Position numbers and translations under genes: made by a program | The notes under the pieces: generated by a model | Seen by the model: the letters and a program-made list of their open reading frames with translations, nothing else | Told to the model about the DNA's origin: nothing | Database searches by the model: none | Shown here: positions 5,311 to 34,468 of the stretch, in pieces | Layout: the number at the start of each line of letters is the position of its first letter | How positions within the stretch are numbered: position 1 is the stretch's first letter | Source of the DNA: Deltaproteobacteria bacterium | GTDB lineage: Bacteria > UBA10199 > SPLOWO2-01-44-7 | DNA length: 43,910 nt | Assembly (NCBI GenBank): GCA_016213065.1 | Contig: JACRBV010000062.1 | Location: 1 to 43,910 of the forward strand | Reading direction: 5' to 3'

Positions 5311-5534
5311 CATTAAGTGTCCGACACCTTCCCCATACACCTGACGGATTTTTGACGGCCGTCAAATTTTTGACTTTCATTTTGAGAAAATGACTTCCTT
5401 TTCACCCACCTATCAAGAATCAAAACAAGACAATGAAAAATAGATAAGTAATTTCATAGAGTTCTAATATGTTTTCTAGGGCTTAAATGGCACGAGGATT
5501 GCACTCTCACTGCACGAGAGTTTTAACTTTTTTT

Positions 5535-8500
5535 ATGATGTTACATAAAATCACAATTAGCGTTTCTCTTTTACTCCTTATCTTGGGTTGTTCCCAAGGT
5601 GATCCGGGTTCTCCCACTAGCTCTTCAACCGAAAAAAACGAGGCCGCACCCGCTGGAGGAAAGGTTGCTCAAATTCCGGAAATTGGGGGCGAATCTGCCG
5701 TTCAAGCCCCGGAAATTGGAATCCAGTCAGCACCGCCACCGGAAGAATCGATACCATCTCCAACCCCAGCGCCGGCAATTGAAGAACAGCCCACATCAAT
5801 ACCCACATCACCACAACCAACAGTTGAAGATCAACCAACTCAAGCATCCGCTCCAACTTCGACCCCAACACCAGAAACAACAACCAAAGAACAGCCCGCA
5901 TCAATACTGGTCCCATCATCCAATGTTAACCAACCTCCAAGTCTTGCCATGATCCTTGATGGAAAAGCCGTTGCTTCCGGCGCTTCTGTTTCTCTCCCTA
6001 TCGGCGGAACAAATGAACAATTTGTTATTCAGGCAAGTGATCCGGAAAAATCTATCGAAAATGTGGCTATTGTTGAAACGAATCCAAAAATAGATCCCAA
6101 TCAAATCCTCTTATCTCCCATCGGAGGAAACCAATATTTAGTTACTGTTTCCGATAAAATTGCTGTTCCAAGCGCAACAGTCACCGTGGCCGTTTCGGAT
6201 AAACCGGTCAATGGAGGCGCAGTCCAGCAATCCAAGGCAACCTTCTCGGCAAATTTTGTAAAAGCCGCACCACCTCCTCCAGTCTCACACCTCACATGCC
6301 AAAATTTTCAATGTAAACCAGCTGAGGGCGCGGGCGCCAACGAGTGCGCCACGGATGCCAGCTGTGGACATTCAACTTGTCAGAACGGTCAGTGCAAACT
6401 TGTTGCCGGTGCGGGTGCCAATGAATGCGCCACAGACGCTAATTGCGGGCATTCAGCCTGCCAGAATAATCAGTGCACACGTGTGGCAGGCGCAGGAGCT
6501 GATCAATGCAAAACCAATGACGAGTGCGCTCCAAAGATTGGGAAGGCGCTCAAGTTTGATGGTTATAATGACTATGTCAATGTGAACCCCACCCCTCAAC
6601 TTTCTCCGCAAGATGCCATCACGGTCATGGCATGGGTAAAAAAAGACAAACAAGACAAACCGACAGATGTAGACAATGCACACTTTGTCCGAAAAGGGAG
6701 TGAATACACACTCGACACGAGCGATAACGGCGCTATTTTGCGGTTTACCGTCAACGGACAATGGGGACTTGGATTAGCCCCTTATCCCAACGACGGGGAA
6801 TGGCATCATGTTGCCGGAACTTATGATAAAAATGCGGGAAAAATAAGAACCTATATCGACGGCATACAGCTTAAAGAATCTCCCTATGCCACATCCATAA
6901 CACCCTCACCACAACCACTCCGAATCGGTGCCAGAAATGATCTCTATACACAAAACATGAAGGGCTTGATTGACGAAGTCTGTATTTACAACCGCGCTCT
7001 CGCCACGGATGAAATCAAAAACATCAAACAAAGTGGGTGTACTGCAAATATGAATGGCATTGTCGGCTACTGGCCTTTTGACGAGGGAGAAGGAAATATC
7101 GTGATGGACTACTCCAATCCGGATGAAGCCTACCCCGGACAAACCGCATTTCTTCTGAATGAAAATTATGGCTCAAAGTTTGTCGTTAATCCCACAGATA
7201 AAAATGTCGGCAAAACATACAAGACATGGGACGAAATTCAGCAGGGTCTGAAAGACAATGACACGCAAACGGCAGGCCCTGTTTGGGCGGAAGGCATACT
7301 TCCGGAGAACACAAAATTCCTCGCCAAACGCCAAGCCGCTAAAGATGCAGGTTCTCAATCACCGGGTCTTTCCCTCAATGGTCTCAATGAATATCTTGTC
7401 GTGGCGCCACCCGACAAGCGTTATGTCAGCGATCTCTACACTCTCACACTGGGAAACTTCTCCGTTTGTGGATGGTTCAAGGCAAAAGATCGGATTGCAG
7501 GTGTAATCGGCAACGGCATCAACGAAGGCGGTTCTTTTGTGATGCATATTGCCGGCTACGGCATGGCTTCCAGATCACTCCGCATGCGTATTATCTATAG
7601 TGGTGGTTCAACAGAGGTCAACGCCTATCTTCCAGATAACAACTTCTGGCATTTTGGTTGTGGTGTGGTAGATGACAAAAACGTTTCCATTTATCTCGAC
7701 AGTGAAATAGGGAGTTCAGCCCTGTTCAAGGGCACCAAAACAAAATTTGATGGCAATATTTTTATCGGAACCACTCGGTACCTTACCAGCGATCCCAAAT
7801 ACTGTTTCAATCCCCAAGACTCTAAAGACCTCTCAAAGATTGACACTGAAGGTTGTTCTGCCTTTATGAGGGGCGGCCTCAAAGACATCCAAATTTTTAA
7901 ACGCGCACTTACCCCCGCCGAAATCCGGGAACAATATAATTTCAGCTTTGGAAAACCGGCCGACCCGGGAAAAGACAAAGACCTCATCGCTTATTGGAAA
8001 TTCAATGAAGAAAAAGGTGTTACAAAAATCGCCGATGCTTCAACCTATCGCAATGATGCACTGTTAACGGAAGGTTCCACAGGTCCCAAATGGGGCAATG
8101 GAATCTTGGGTGGGGGAATAGAATTGGACGGAATTAATGATTTTATTGCGCTGGGAACTTCACCAACACTCAACATGGCCGACAAAAATTTTTCCATTTG
8201 CACTTGGCTCAAAACAGCAGACACAACAAAATCGATACAAGATATTTTTAGCAACAGTATGGTGTCAAACACCCCGGGCACCTATCGCTTTAGTGTCAGG
8301 GGTGGCAAAATGGGGGGCGATATAGTTTATGGCAACAGTCAAAATGCCGTCAGTAGCAATAAAATTGTAAATGATAACCAATGGCACTTTGGGTGTCAGG
8401 TTGTCGACGACGTCAATAACAACATCTATGTCGATGGCGTCTTAGAAAAATCACAAGCCTTGAGCGGAACAAAAACAAAAGTTCTTGGCTCAACAGGCGT

Positions 8501-8777
8501 TCCCAATAATAGACCCGTTTATATTGGATTAATTTATCCCGGATATGTTCGCGGAAACTTTGGCGGCGTTCTCGATGAATTGTCGGTTTGGGGCAAAGCC
8601 CTGAGTGCCGAAGAAATTAAGTCCCTCTATAATAATGGTAGTGGTTTGGCTGTCACATCGCAGACAGAACTACTTGGGCTGTGGCATTTGGATGAAGTAC
8701 AAGGCGACTTCGTCTATGATTCATCAGACAACAGCAATCACGGTGTCCTCAAAAATGAACCGGCCATTATCCCATGA
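5535..8777 (+). CDS. Large secreted lipoprotein: P/T/S-rich linker, three Cys-rich 27-aa repeats, three Laminin_G_3 (LamG/ConA-like) domains
   Basis: Start moved to ATG 5535 to give a lipoprotein signal (MMLHKITISVSLLLLILGC). LamG signatures appear three times: FDG/LNG/LDG..D(Y/F), W(H)H(V)..DG, and DE(V/L)..(Y/W)..AL..(D/E)EI. Confidence 0.75.
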   Translation: MMLHKITISVSLLLLILGCSQGDPGSPTSSSTEKNEAAPAGGKVAQIPEIGGESAVQAPEIGIQSAPPPEESIPSPTPAPAIEEQPTSIPTSPQPTVEDQPTQASAPTSTPTPETTTKEQPASILVPSSNVNQPPSLAMILDGKAVASGASVSLPIGGTNEQFVIQASDPEKSIENVAIVETNPKIDPNQILLSPIGGNQYLVTVSDKIAVPSATVTVAVSDKPVNGGAVQQSKATFSANFVKAAPPPPVSHLTCQNFQCKPAEGAGANECATDASCGHSTCQNGQCKLVAGAGANECATDANCGHSACQNNQCTRVAGAGADQCKTNDECAPKIGKALKFDGYNDYVNVNPTPQLSPQDAITVMAWVKKDKQDKPTDVDNAHFVRKGSEYTLDTSDNGAILRFTVNGQWGLGLAPYPNDGEWHHVAGTYDKNAGKIRTYIDGIQLKESPYATSITPSPQPLRIGARNDLYTQNMKGLIDEVCIYNRALATDEIKNIKQSGCTANMNGIVGYWPFDEGEGNIVMDYSNPDEAYPGQTAFLLNENYGSKFVVNPTDKNVGKTYKTWDEIQQGLKDNDTQTAGPVWAEGILPENTKFLAKRQAAKDAGSQSPGLSLNGLNEYLVVAPPDKRYVSDLYTLTLGNFSVCGWFKAKDRIAGVIGNGINEGGSFVMHIAGYGMASRSLRMRIIYSGGSTEVNAYLPDNNFWHFGCGVVDDKNVSIYLDSEIGSSALFKGTKTKFDGNIFIGTTRYLTSDPKYCFNPQDSKDLSKIDTEGCSAFMRGGLKDIQIFKRALTPAEIREQYNFSFGKPADPGKDKDLIAYWKFNEEKGVTKIADASTYRNDALLTEGSTGPKWGNGILGGGIELDGINDFIALGTSPTLNMADKNFSICTWLKTADTTKSIQDIFSNSMVSNTPGTYRFSVRGGKMGGDIVYGNSQNAVSSNKIVNDNQWHFGCQVVDDVNNNIYVDGVLEKSQALSGTKTKVLGSTGVPNNRPVYIGLIYPGYVRGNFGGVLDELSVWGKALSAEEIKSLYNNGSGLAVTSQTELLGLWHLDEVQGDFVYDSSDNSNHGVLKNEPAIIP
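6297..6536 (+). repeat. Three tandem 81-nt coding repeats (CQNxQCxxxxGAGAxxCxTDxxCGHS)
   Basis: Units start at 6297, 6378 and 6459. Each has four Cys at fixed spacing. The repeat lies inside the LamG lipoprotein. Confidence 0.85.
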
Positions 8778-8865: not shown

Positions 8866-9900
8866 ATGGCGGATAGCAAAAATCAGTCTCTCGAAAAAAC
8901 TGCGTTTTGGGTATTGCTGGGTGTTCTTTTGGTTGTCTTCTTTTGGCTCTTGAAACCTTTTTATTCCGTTTTGCTTTTGTCCCTTGTTTTGGCTTTGATC
9001 TCACAACCTCTCTTTGAATTTTTCCTGAAAATTTTCAATCAACGGCGTTATCTTTCCGCATTTTTCTGTCTTGTTCTTTTCCTTTTGTTCGCGGCATTGC
9101 CGGTTGGATTCGTTATTTCCGCCGTCGCGGAGCAAACTATCCGGGCGGCCCAAAGCCTTGGAGAACATTTCACGCTGAATCAGGGATTTCTTGCCCAAAT
9201 TTTTGAGAACTGGCGGCAAACACTGGGGGTTGAAATTGATTTGTATCATTGGTTTAAAGAGTTTGTGCAAAATGCCGCACAGTATCTTTATCAATTTTCC
9301 CCGAAGGTCATTTCCAATACAGCCGGTTTTTTTCTGGGCGGCCTGCTCACCTTGATCCTCACCTACTTTTTATTGGTGGATGGTCCCAAACTTTATCACC
9401 AGATACTGGAAGTCTCCCCCCTCAAAAACACCTATGAAAAAACGTTGGCCAATGAAATCTGCGTCACACTCCGGGCGTGTATCTACGGCTATCTCCTGAC
9501 GGCTCTGGTACAGGGCATTCTGGCTGGCATCGGTTTTTGGGTTATCGGCATCAAATTGGCGCTTCTCTTGGGATTGGCAACTTTTATTATGGCCTTTGTC
9601 CCCATTGTCGGAACGGGATCTGTCTGGGTCCCCGTTTTTATTTATCTGCTCGCAGGCGGACAATATGGAAAAGCAACTTTTCTGTTTATCTACGGGTTTT
9701 TCATCATCTCCGGCATCGATAATATCTTAAAACCTCTTTTGATTCAGGGAAAAACAAACATCCATCCCGTACTACTCTTTCTCGCCATCTTTGGTGGATT
9801 AAAATTGTGGGGACCCGTAGGATTGCTCGCAGGCCCCACGCTGGCCGCCGTCCTGCTCGCCACCCTAAAAATCTACAAAAAAGATTTCCAGACAAATTGA
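8866..9900 (+). CDS. AI-2E family transporter (PerM/UPF0118)
   Basis: Multi-TM protein with typical UPF0118 layout and a C-terminal VPIVG..W.P motif region. ATG 8866 is preferred over the TTG at 8857. Confidence 0.85.
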   Translation: MADSKNQSLEKTAFWVLLGVLLVVFFWLLKPFYSVLLLSLVLALISQPLFEFFLKIFNQRRYLSAFFCLVLFLLFAALPVGFVISAVAEQTIRAAQSLGEHFTLNQGFLAQIFENWRQTLGVEIDLYHWFKEFVQNAAQYLYQFSPKVISNTAGFFLGGLLTLILTYFLLVDGPKLYHQILEVSPLKNTYEKTLANEICVTLRACIYGYLLTALVQGILAGIGFWVIGIKLALLLGLATFIMAFVPIVGTGSVWVPVFIYLLAGGQYGKATFLFIYGFFIISGIDNILKPLLIQGKTNIHPVLLFLAIFGGLKLWGPVGLLAGPTLAAVLLATLKIYKKDFQTN

Positions 9901-10640
9901 TGAATATGTCACCAATTTTCGTCACAACAAAAAGAGACAAAGCACGCGCCCTAAGAGCTCAAGGACTTAGTTATGGTGAAATATTTTCCGTCATAAAAGC
10001 ATCGAAAAGTTCTATCAGCATTTGGTGTAGGGACATCCAAGTCAATCCAACCCAGAAAATATTTCTCAAAAAAAGAGGTGGCGTGGCAAGCAAGCGTGGA
10101 CAACACAATAAATTAAACAGAGCCAAAGAAATCGAACAAATAAAACAAAGCGCTTCTAAGGAAATTGGTCCATTAACCTCGAATGAATTTAAATTGGCAG
10201 GCCTCATGCTCTATTGGGCAGAAGGGGGAAAAACGACAAGACAGATCGATTTTACTAATTCCAATCCAAAAATAATTGTCCTTATGATGCAACGGTTTCG
10301 GAAGATATGCGAAATAGACAATTCACGTTTTCGCATTCAGTTGCATCTGCATTCAGGACAAAAAGAAGAATCTATCAAAGCATTTTGGTCTTCTTTAATG
10401 GGCATACCACTTGAGCAATCTTATAAGAGTTATATTAAAAAAGAAGGAACAGGTCATCGCAAAAATAAATTGTACTGCGGCACTGTAAAAATACGCGTTT
10501 GCAATGGAAATCTCTTGCAAAAAATACTCGGCTGGATAGAAGGAACAACACAACAGTTATGGGCTGTTAGCTCAGTTGGTAGAGCAGGTGACTCAATTAA
10601 GGGTCCTACTCATTGTGAAATGAGCATGCAAACCGGGTGA
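9900..10640 (+). CDS. HTH + LAGLIDADG-like endonuclease-fold protein (putative free-standing homing endonuclease)
   Basis: N-terminal resolvase-type HTH (ARALRAQGLSYGEIFSVIKASKSSISIWC) followed by a LAGLMLYWAEGGK motif. The start ATG overlaps the upstream stop (TGATG). The last ~27 codons run through the tRNA 5' exon into the intron. The ORF-track start at 9807 is rejected. Confidence 0.5.
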   Translation: MNMSPIFVTTKRDKARALRAQGLSYGEIFSVIKASKSSISIWCRDIQVNPTQKIFLKKRGGVASKRGQHNKLNRAKEIEQIKQSASKEIGPLTSNEFKLAGLMLYWAEGGKTTRQIDFTNSNPKIIVLMMQRFRKICEIDNSRFRIQLHLHSGQKEESIKAFWSSLMGIPLEQSYKSYIKKEGTGHRKNKLYCGTVKIRVCNGNLLQKILGWIEGTTQQLWAVSSVGRAGDSIKGPTHCEMSMQTG

Positions 10641-10885
10641 ACTCAGGGAACGCTAAACTCTCTTCAAAAGAGCAGGTCAATCCTGAGCCAAGCTGAATGA
10701 AAGCGGTGGCAATGTAATTCAGAAGGTGCAGAGACTAGAGGGTGAGGAAAGCAACCAATAATCCCTCATAAGTGCCCGGCTCGCAGAGAAACTTCGGCGA
10801 GATGATATAGTCCGACACTCTGGAGAAATCTGGAGATAACAGTTGCTTAATCACCGGGTCGCAGGTTCGATCCCTGCACAGCCCA
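10561..10885 (+). tRNA. tRNA-Lys(CUU) interrupted in the anticodon loop (exons 10561-10593 and 10846-10885)
   Basis: The joined exons give a 73-nt cloverleaf: GGGCTGT/ACAGCCC acceptor, GCTC/GAGC D stem, GGTGA/TCACC anticodon stem, loop CU-CUU-AA, and GCAGG-TTCGATC-CCTGC T arm. It is close to E. coli tRNA-Lys as remembered. CCA is not encoded. Confidence 0.88.
10594..10845 (+). ncRNA. Group I (IC3-like) intron, 252 nt, no internal ORF
   Basis: The base at -1 is U10593, and U.G closes P1 (exon GACU / GGUC 10602-10605). UUAAG 10597-10601 is complementary to the 3' exon CUUAA (P10). The omega base is G10845. P2 (10609-10624) has a GUGA tetraloop. P4 is CUCAGG 10642-47 paired with CCUGAG 10682-87. 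The core strings GAGCCAAGC (10685-93) and GAAGGUGCAGAGACUAGAGGG (10722-42) resemble the Azoarcus tRNA-Ile intron core. Confidence 0.82.
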
Positions 10886-10892
10886 CAAAAAA

Positions 10893-10925
10893 GGTTGGAT
10901 TCGCCAATCCAACCTTTTTTATTTT
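10893..10925 (+). terminator. Rho-independent terminator after tRNA-Lys
   Basis: GGTTGGATT-CGCC-AATCCAACC followed by TTTTTTATTTT and preceded by an A-run. Confidence 0.75.
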
Positions 10926-27205: not shown

Positions 27206-27344
27206 ATCCCTTGGCAAAAGCAGGAATCGTGCCAAGAAGATAAAAGTTGAAATGCGCGGAAAGATTAAAGAAAATTTTTTGCTTTTTACTGGAGTGGTTG
27301 AAAATGGAACAGGCTGTGCGAAAAAGGAAACATTTAAAATTTCA

Positions 27345-27739
27345 AAAATGCGGGATCTGTAAGCCGGGTTCTGTATCCGTCACGTTACCGCGGTGGATGA
27401 TGATCATTCCTCTAGGCCATCTGTTACCAGATGGCTCAAGCAGTCTACCCGTTCTGCCATCTTTCACAGCTTAAGCGACATGAAAGAATTGGCCGGACCA
27501 GCTCATAAGCAGAACCTATTTGACCTTGCTCCCCGTGGAGTTTGCCGCGTTTCACCCTTCGTCTGCCCGAAAGCAAACGAAGACTCGTCTCTGTGACACT
27601 ATTCCTGAGTTACATATGGTACCTGGTACTATATGTAACGCGATGGGCGTTACCCACCATGGTGTCCTTTGGAGCCCGGACTTTCCTCTCTCCGCCAACT
27701 TTTCTGTGGCGAACAGCGATCATCCGATCCCGCATTTTT
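27345..27739 (-). ncRNA. rnpB: RNase P RNA, bacterial type A
   Basis: On the minus strand: GAGGAAAGUCCGGGCUCCA (complement of 27665-27690), AGCAAGGUCAAAUAGG, and ACAGAACCCGGCUUACA. P1 is formed by AAAUGCGGGAUC at both ends. Confidence 0.92.
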
Positions 27740-34392: not shown

Positions 34393-34465
34393 GGGCCCTT
34401 AGCTCAGCGGTCAGAGCGGTCGGCTCATAACCGATTGGTCCCAGGTTCAAATCCTGGAGGGCCCA
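34393..34465 (+). tRNA. tRNA with anticodon CAT, elongator type; resembles tRNA-Ile2 (lysidine) more than tRNA-Met
   Basis: 73-nt cloverleaf: GGGCCCT/AGGGCCC acceptor, loop CUCAUAA, variable TGGTC. It lacks the initiator features (1:72 mismatch, GGG/CCC stem). Its similarity to E. coli ileX is from memory. Confidence 0.88.
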
Positions 34466-34468
34466 CAG

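Follow-up and report, generated by a model that had tools for sequence, protein, structure and literature searches.

An interrupted transfer RNA (tRNA) gene raises the question of what the interrupting sequence is, whether the tRNA could still be produced, and whether the arrangement has been described before. We addressed this question for a tRNA-Lys(CUU) gene located at positions 10561-10885 of a 43,910-nucleotide (nt) contig of a Deltaproteobacteria bacterium, an uncultured groundwater organism (accession no. JACRBV010000062.1; assembly GCA_016213065.1), the whole of which is referred to below as the window. The gene is interrupted between U33 and C34, i.e. within the anticodon loop. A first-pass annotation, made from the nucleotide sequence without database searches, had proposed that a group I intron of 252 nt separates the two exons, and this assignment was borne out by Rfam, ARAGORN and covariation among homologous copies. 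The locus is a tRNA-Lys(CUU) gene split by an evolutionarily conserved group I intron, and it is very probable that this intron is removed by splicing. A further question is posed by an overlapping upstream open reading frame (ORF), designated ORFX. Unless stated otherwise, all features described lie on the plus strand.

The 5′ exon (10561-10593; 33 nt; tRNA positions 1-33) has the sequence GGGCUGUUAGCUCAGUUGGUAGAGCAGGUGACU and ends with U33, while the 3′ exon (10846-10885; 40 nt; positions 34-73) starts with CUUAAUCACC and carries the anticodon CUU at 10846-10848. The intron occupies positions 10594-10845. Joining of the exons yields a 73-nt tRNA-Lys(CUU) with a perfect cloverleaf, as folded by ARAGORN, and with A73 as the discriminator base; the terminal CCA is not encoded. 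With introns allowed, ARAGORN reported this gene as tRNA-Lys(ctt) i(34,252). The same program did not detect the locus with default settings, and a genome annotated in this way would appear to be devoid of tRNA-Lys(CUU). A scan with Rfam model RF00028 (Intron_gpI), which the first-pass annotation had suggested as a check, aligned the whole model (1-253) to positions 10584-10835; the score of 62.0 bits (E = 1.7e-13) exceeds the gathering score of 50. The splice sites are unambiguous, because a single choice of boundaries gives both a 3′-terminal intron G and a restored tRNA. The intron has no internal ORF, and thus no endonuclease ORF that would make it the host of an intron-encoded homing endonuclease; its sole coding overlap is the 47-nt tail of ORFX. 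An intrinsic-terminator-like hairpin followed by a T run is located directly 3′ of the tRNA (10887-10925).

The features that characterize group I introns are all present, namely (i) a score above the Rfam gathering score, (ii) a U.G wobble in helix P1, formed with an internal guide, (iii) a terminal (omega) G, and (iv) helices P3 to P8, with P7 crossing P3. P1 with its wobble pair, the P10 guide, the terminal G, the GNRA-capped P2 and P4 had already been read from the sequence in the first-pass annotation, and they were found as described there. P1 (10590-10605) joins exon residues GACU (10590-10593) with GGUC (10602-10605), and the wobble pair U10593.G10602 is placed at the 5′ splice site. 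The P1 loop contains the segment UUAAG (10597-10601), the guide for P10, which is complementary to the first 3′-exon residues, CUUAA (10846-10850). The last intron residue is G10845. P2 (10609-10624) consists of 6 base pairs (bp) capped by a GNRA loop (GUGA). The 5′ strand of P3, CCGGGUG (10633-10639), pairs with 10773-10779. P4 (10642-10687), identified by RF00028, by the alignment of homologous copies and by RNAalifold, is formed by CUCAGG (10642-10647) and CCUGAG (10682-10687) and encloses P5/P5a (10652-10677); it is followed by P6/P6a (10688-10726). P7, the guanosine-binding helix, forms a pseudoknot with P3. In the RF00028 alignment its 5′ strand (10731-10737) reads G-A(bulge)-GACUA, and its 3′ strand, UAGUCC (10808-10813), lies inside the conserved block GAUAUAGUCC. 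P8 (10780-10801) and P9 (10818-10835; 7 bp, GAAA loop) complete the structure.

One additional element is a P7.1-like hairpin located between P7 and the 3′ strand of P3 (10738-10767). In the Rfam alignment it appears as an insertion of approximately 33 nt between the 5′ strand of P7 (GAGACUA) and P3′ (GCCCGG), which folds into a conserved hairpin. The hairpin of the window intron is 30 nt long, and the classical members of subgroup IC3 have only 3 nt between P7 and P3′. Apart from this hairpin, the intron displays the compact architecture, lacking P2.1 and P5abc, and the characteristic core blocks of this subgroup.

In order to obtain homologous copies, we scanned 185,579 species-representative genomes with a pattern that is neutral as to intron type, i.e. 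the 3′ half of tRNA-Lys(CUU) preceded by G instead of U33 (G + CUUAA...GUC...GGUUCRA..C). This search revealed 118 loci, four of which are full homologs of the tRNA precursor. These are derived from Deltaproteobacteria bacterium RIFCSPHIGHO2_01_FULL_43_49 (L019), isolate nzgw604 (L089), NC_groundwater_355 (L074) and AlinenLipids_bin-3264 (L059). With four of approximately 185,000 genomes matched by the search pattern, this type of interrupted gene is rare. A fifth homolog (L123), present in a sequencing-run assembly, was found via its neighboring gene; all five are from other uncultured bacteria. The homologous introns are 241-250 nt long and are inserted at 33/34 in every case, and the pairwise identity among the window and the four copies from the genome scan is 72-84%. 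Two of the homologous copies were rescanned with RF00028 and gave 76 and 61.7 bits.

A structure comprising P1 to P10, the P3/P7 pseudoknot and the tRNA stems was drawn by hand and evaluated against versions slid by 1-3 columns and against 500 shuffles. Standard pairs were found in 97.3% of the cells, and 28 of the 83 pairs showed changes on both sides. The slid versions gave 0-5 such pairs, and none of the 500 shuffles reached the observed values. Within the intron, it is mainly P2 (5 of 6 pairs), P6a (5/6), P8 (4/5) and P9 (3/7) that show compensatory changes. The P5 pair 92-117 (numbering of the tRNA precursor; 10652-10677 in the window) is G-U, G-C or C-G among the copies. RNAalifold, applied to six introns independently of the drawing, also predicted the helices shown there, among them the P3 pairing and the extra hairpin that lies between P7 and P3′. 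Several sites are fixed or nearly so: the U at position -1 and the U.G wobble in P1 are invariant in the five aligned copies, and the terminal G in all six. The P2 loop is of the GNRA type in every copy (GUGA, GCGA or GUAA), and the P9 loop is GAAA in all but L059 (GUAA), as in small tRNA introns. P10 comprises 5 bp in the window and in L019, and 2-4 bp in the other copies.

Covariation extends to the exons, where it was observed in the acceptor stem (4 of 7 pairs), the anticodon stem (2 of 3) and the T stem (3 of 5). Both exons are thus under purifying selection, and the sequence and structural signature of the intron is conserved with compensatory changes. Since the exons covary as a tRNA, selection acts on the tRNA in each of the lineages, and this implies that the intron is removed. 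The locus might nevertheless be a decaying relic within a pseudogene, with AAG codons read by another tRNA. An uninterrupted tRNA-Lys(CUU) gene, or decoding by tRNA-Lys(UUU), is possible outside the 43.9-kb window, within which a tRNA-Met gene is the only other tRNA gene. We consider such decay very improbable, as both ribozyme and tRNA have retained their helices by compensatory substitution in copies with 72-84% identity, and the catalytic core, the U at -1 and the terminal G are all invariant. It is also very unlikely that the locus represents a misassembly, considering that six independent assemblies speak otherwise.

Some observations weigh against the interpretation of the locus as a functional group I intron. 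P1, P3, P4, P6 and P7 are invariant (except for a single G-U to G-C change in P3), so that conservation and the Rfam model, and not covariation, back these helices. P10 is reduced to 2-3 bp in L059 and L074. Moreover, the support for splicing of introns of this type is computational, both here and in the preprint in which the type was reported (see below). Taking all of these data together, we still favor an intron that would be spliced, and it is probable that the cell depends on this splicing for the reading of AAG codons.

The proposed pathway follows the established two-step mechanism of group I introns. In the precursor, exon residues G30-U33 would give up the anticodon stem and pair with the internal guide GGUC, forming P1. 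An external guanosine, bound in P7, would then attack after U33. The segment UUAAG may help to align the 3′ exon by forming P10, and G10845 would take the place of the external guanosine in the same site. The freed 3′-OH of U33 would attack after G10845, which would join U33 to C34. The tRNA would presumably be completed by RNase P, trimming of the 3′ end and addition of CCA.

Is this an intron of a novel type? The first-pass annotation knew of no precedent for the host tRNA-Lys(CUU) or for the 33/34 insertion position, and both had in fact been described. In a screen of 80,413 bacterial genomes, Williams added 17 interrupted-tRNA types to the 4 known before, which gives a total of 21, and one of the new types is Lys.2Ug (bioRxiv 2020, doi 10.1101/2020.01.27.920355). 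In the nomenclature used there, position n denotes insertion after the n-th nucleotide of the anticodon loop, and the classical types are named Leu.3Ug, Arg.5Ug, fMet.2Ug and Ile2.5Ug; these four are also, according to that text, the only types marked as IC3 in a group I intron database (doi 10.1101/2020.01.27.920355). The 33/34 position was therefore already known, because the classical cyanobacterial fMet intron (fMet.2Ug) occupies it, and further “.2Ug” types are listed for Met, Leu, Thr, Ile2 and Phe (doi 10.1101/2020.01.27.920355).

The intron of the window agrees with Lys.2Ug in its host tRNA-Lys, its location after U33, the U at -1, the terminal G and its homology to the seed sequence. 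All 254 nt of this seed (Dba165.Lys.2Ug) occur without mismatch within the L019 precursor, and the seed shares 85% identity with the window intron. On this sequence evidence, the locus is a further example of an already described type and not a discovery. What is added here is the covariation that now backs the structure of Lys.2Ug, which is absent from the preprint. Reviews and the paper on tRNADB-CE limit the hosts of tRNA introns to the classical ones (in cyanobacteria, alpha- and beta-proteobacteria). Introns in tRNA-Lys are not mentioned in the available text of two papers from 2025, one on a transfer-messenger RNA (tmRNA) database and the other on a database of group I introns. A published set of short tRNA inserts was considered and rejected as a precedent, since these inserts (22-49 nt, at positions 38-74) are too short to be ribozymes.

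The remaining loci matched by the scan pattern are probably, for the most part, chance matches or fragments of tRNA 3′ halves. No intron-like sequence was found upstream of them with nhmmer, and a rescan of 17 of these loci with Rfam revealed no group I intron. Some of them have an unusual organization of their own. In a metagenome-assembled genome (MAG) of the Gemmatales (L103:1330-1473), a complete tRNA-Ala(CGC)-like gene (1364-1434) is inserted into a tRNA-Lys(CUU)-like gene, immediately 5′ of C34; the nested tRNA sits at the same bond as the intron, and this is a single case. In a tRNA-Lys(CUU)-like gene of Chitinophaga rupis DSM 21039 (L015:602-719), 45 nt are inserted at position 34 (51.9 bits over 118 nt with the Rfam tRNA model). 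A tRNA cluster in L052 (885-1090) includes two over-long tRNA matches of 100-102 nt, and ARAGORN called a weak-looking 159-nt insertion in L013. In a MAG of the Phycisphaerales (L108:5867-5999), the scan pattern fitted the tRNA-like part of a YrlA (Y RNA-like) match (69.4 bits; gathering score 69).

The second question concerns ORFX (9900-10640; hypothetical protein HY877_03695, for which the NCBI record gives the start at 9906). The start of ORFX coincides with the stop codon of the gene for an AI-2E transporter; its frame crosses the 5′ exon of the tRNA and takes in the first 47 nt of the intron, of which ORFX is a neighbor and not a demonstrated part. The predicted protein consists of an N-terminus of the HTH_23 (helix-turn-helix) type and an uncharacterized alpha/beta domain. 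Its AlphaFold model, which is a confident one (predicted local distance difference test, pLDDT, 85), shows an HTH-like head, a long helix and the alpha/beta domain. The N-terminal HTH_23-type segment, which is transposase-like or resolvase-like, is the only consistent domain signal, and it passes the Pfam threshold in distant members of the family.

By eye, the segment LAGLMLYWAEGGK...NSNP had suggested that ORFX might be a homing endonuclease of the LAGLIDADG type. This candidate was rejected, as no family, profile or fold match was obtained: the LAGLIDADG families of Pfam did not match the window ORFX at E values up to 10, nor any of 56 members scanned individually at E values up to 1. The alpha-beta-beta-alpha-beta-beta-alpha fold of these enzymes was not recognized in ORFX, for which a sequence profile search of the PDB was empty. 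A Foldseek search of the model against PDB and BFVD gave no match with E < 0.01, with no LAGLIDADG enzyme among the top 50.

The reading frame of ORFX is linked to the tRNA gene in a peculiar way. In homologs located beside an uninterrupted tRNA-Lys(CUU) gene (P0008-P0110), the frame is closed by a UAA that consists of the anticodon-loop residues U36-A37-A38 (“...SS.GRA..S*”). The intron of the window removes this stop codon, and ORFX extends 14 codons further. Splicing of a co-transcript of ORFX and the tRNA would restore the usual stop of ORFX. Analysis of the 120 closest homologs revealed that their C-terminal tails are the translated tRNA-Lys(CUU) gene, in one of the three frames; approximately 40 of them stop at the UAA of U36-A37-A38, and approximately 9, nearest to the window ORFX, read on into an intron.

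ORFX belongs to a very large family, for which there is no Pfam model. It comprises 5,939 representatives of clusters defined at 50% identity (E ≤ 0.001), and it was found at more than 544 metagenome loci. At 61 of 80 metagenome loci that were inspected, the ORFX gene abuts a tRNA gene, specifying tRNA-Lys(CUU) (28 loci), tRNA-Arg(UCU) (29), tRNA-Phe(GAA) (2) or tRNA-Leu(GAG) (2). Five of the remaining loci have too little downstream sequence, and 14 lack a tRNA gene directly downstream, several of these being located directly after one. ORFX usually lies within a tRNA array, in differing slots, and almost always overlaps a same-strand tRNA gene located directly 3′. In another lineage (L119:3001-6675 and L121:3001-6699), the order is tRNA-Arg(UCG), ORFX, an uninterrupted tRNA-Lys(CUU), Archease and an RtcB RNA ligase, so that ORFX and its tRNA are immediately followed by an operon for tRNA repair or ligation. 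This RtcB carries an intein with faint matches to LAGLIDADG_3.

Among the intron-bearing loci, ORFX adjoins the 5′ side of the tRNA gene in four cases, namely the window, L074, L059 and L123. L019, which has the AI-2E neighbor in common with the window, lacks ORFX, and its 205-nt spacer contained no remnants of this gene; the 272 nt upstream in L089 gave a weak, doubtful match. This distribution bears on the possibility that ORFX is a maturase, i.e. a splicing cofactor of an intron that is not autonomous. ORFX lies next to the intron, and its frame covers the 5′ exon and continues into the beginning of the intron. The two are presumably co-transcribed, and no plus-strand promoter-like site was found between them. 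A maturase is nonetheless extremely unlikely: L019 has the intron and lacks ORFX, relatives of ORFX are found, in the great majority of cases, with tRNAs that have no intron, and the intron itself contains every core element of small self-splicing tRNA introns.

The same polymorphic presence, without a trace of ORFX in L019 despite the common AI-2E neighbor, would be compatible with a different role. ORFX could be a free-standing, homing-type protein that binds or cleaves the tRNA-Lys(CUU) gene at or near the 33/34 position; the intron would then shield the resident gene, and both would spread or persist together. The transposase- or resolvase-type HTH and the location beside tRNA genes at 61 of the 80 loci, inside arrays and in various slots, are in line with such an activity; together with the polymorphic presence, they fit a mobile gene that targets tRNAs. 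Further support is offered by one lineage (L121, L122, L125, L126 and L129) in which a displaced 5′ half of tRNA-Lys is found upstream of ORFX; in L121, U33 is the last residue of this fragment and lies two bases upstream of the ORFX start codon. The displaced 5′ parts were located at L121:2904-3001, L119:2721-2797, L125:937-970 and, at a tRNA-Arg(UCU) locus, L170:1370-1408. A second, shorter displaced fragment forms the inverted repeat CCATTAG...CTAATGG. However, the U33 scar represents one evolutionary event, and the fragment in L170 breaks near position 48 and not 33. Displaced 5′ halves were therefore rejected as a general signature of ORFX insertion, being too few (one Lys lineage and one Arg-UCU locus) and inconsistent.

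Free-standing homing endonucleases located beside their target are known, e.g. SegB in the tRNA gene cluster of phage T4 and F-CphI beside the intron site of the cyanophage psbA gene. For phages, Zeng, Bonocora and Shub reportedly proposed in 2009 that free-standing endonucleases encoded beside the insertion sites of introns spread or persist together with these introns. ORFX resembles SegB and F-CphI in being a small gene of polymorphic presence, wedged in a tRNA array or located by an intron site. In contrast to these enzymes, which have recognizable nuclease domains, no nuclease domain or fold was detected in ORFX in searches of Pfam, PHROGs, NCBIfam, PADLOC and PDB sequences, or with Foldseek against PDB and BFVD. 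Moreover, most members of the ORFX family adjoin an uninterrupted tRNA-Lys(CUU) or tRNA-Arg(UCU) gene, and all 80 metagenome loci lack an intron; ORFX and a tRNA gene can thus coexist without one. A homing-type role of ORFX is thus unlikely. We assign a similarly low probability to the broader idea that ORFX represents a very large, undescribed mobile family that colonizes the 5′ flanks of specific tRNA genes (Lys-CUU, Arg-UCU, Phe, Leu) and brings along or duplicates the 5′ half of a tRNA, with the Lys-CUU branch acting at 33/34, which would make it, together with the intron, a chromosomal counterpart of “collaborative homing”. The ORFX family is very abundant, and the reading frames of its members typically terminate within a tRNA gene; it poses a more open question than the intron does.

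Other features of the window lie apart from the interrupted gene. Positions 5487-8777 (plus strand), 5′ of the AI-2E transporter gene, encode a 1096-amino-acid protein with three Laminin_G_3/concanavalin-like lectin repeats. A bacterial RNase P RNA of class A, which scored 223 bits and contains sizeable insertions that the model lacks, is encoded at 27344-27735 (minus strand), and the tRNA-Met(CAU) gene is located at 34393-34466 (plus strand).

Among known systems, the closest to the window intron is the Lys.2Ug seed Dba165, which has the same host tRNA, insertion point, U at -1, terminal G and helices, including the hairpin between P7 and P3′. It differs in originating from another species-level genome and in the absence of ORFX from its locus, which is present upstream of the window copy. 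Williams reported the Lys.2Ug type by computation, and the accessible part of the preprint does not mention the neighboring genes (doi 10.1101/2020.01.27.920355). The accompanying seed alignment annotates the P7-P3′ hairpin for Lys.2Ug as well as for the Asn.4Ug, Phe.2Ug, Leu.1Ug and tmRNA introns (doi 10.1101/2020.01.27.920355).

The resemblance to the Azoarcus/Agrobacterium IC3 introns noted in the first-pass annotation holds segment by segment for Azoarcus, and the window intron shares 63-72% identity over aligned columns with the four classical seeds: 63% with Ile2.5Ug of Azoarcus, 67% with Arg.5Ug, 69% with fMet.2Ug and 72% with Leu.3Ug. The cyanobacterial tRNA-fMet intron (seed Tpc1.fMet.2Ug) has the same insertion site, directly before the wobble base C34, and an IC3-type core. 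It differs in its host tRNA, in the lack of the P7-P3′ hairpin and in a long insertion in the P1 loop. The Azoarcus tRNA-Ile(CAU) intron (Aol6.Ile2.5Ug), which serves as the structural model of small tRNA introns and whose sequence was taken from the Williams seed alignment, has in common with the window intron the core blocks GCCAAGC, GAAGGUG.AGAGACUAGA and AUAGUCC, the GNRA or GAAA loops on P2 and P9, the lack of P2.1 and P5abc, and nearly identical lengths of the P1-to-P5 and P8 segments. It is inserted at 36/37 and is 205 nt long, compared with 252 nt in the window. The first-pass annotation had attributed this difference to an extended 3′ (P9) region, which proved incorrect: P9 plus the tail contributes only 4 of the 47 additional nt, and the excess is mainly due to the P7-P3′ hairpin (33 nt) and P6a (10 nt).

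In phage and plasmid collections, matches were limited to tRNA-Lys exons, except for two group I introns on Clostridium prophage plasmids, located in tail tape-measure genes of C. perfringens and C. botulinum (L205:1373-1618 and L206:1445-1706; accession nos. NZ_CP148647.1 and NZ_CP063819.1) and unannotated in their records. These introns share 74-76% identity with the window intron over the P6-P9 core and contain the same extra hairpin after GACUA, with nearly the same sequence. They differ from the window intron in being inserted in protein-coding genes, in carrying an HNH ORF and in their Rfam scores (41.8 and 39.9 bits), which are below the gathering score. The presence of the common extra hairpin in these prophage introns suggests that introns have been exchanged between phage genes and tRNA genes.

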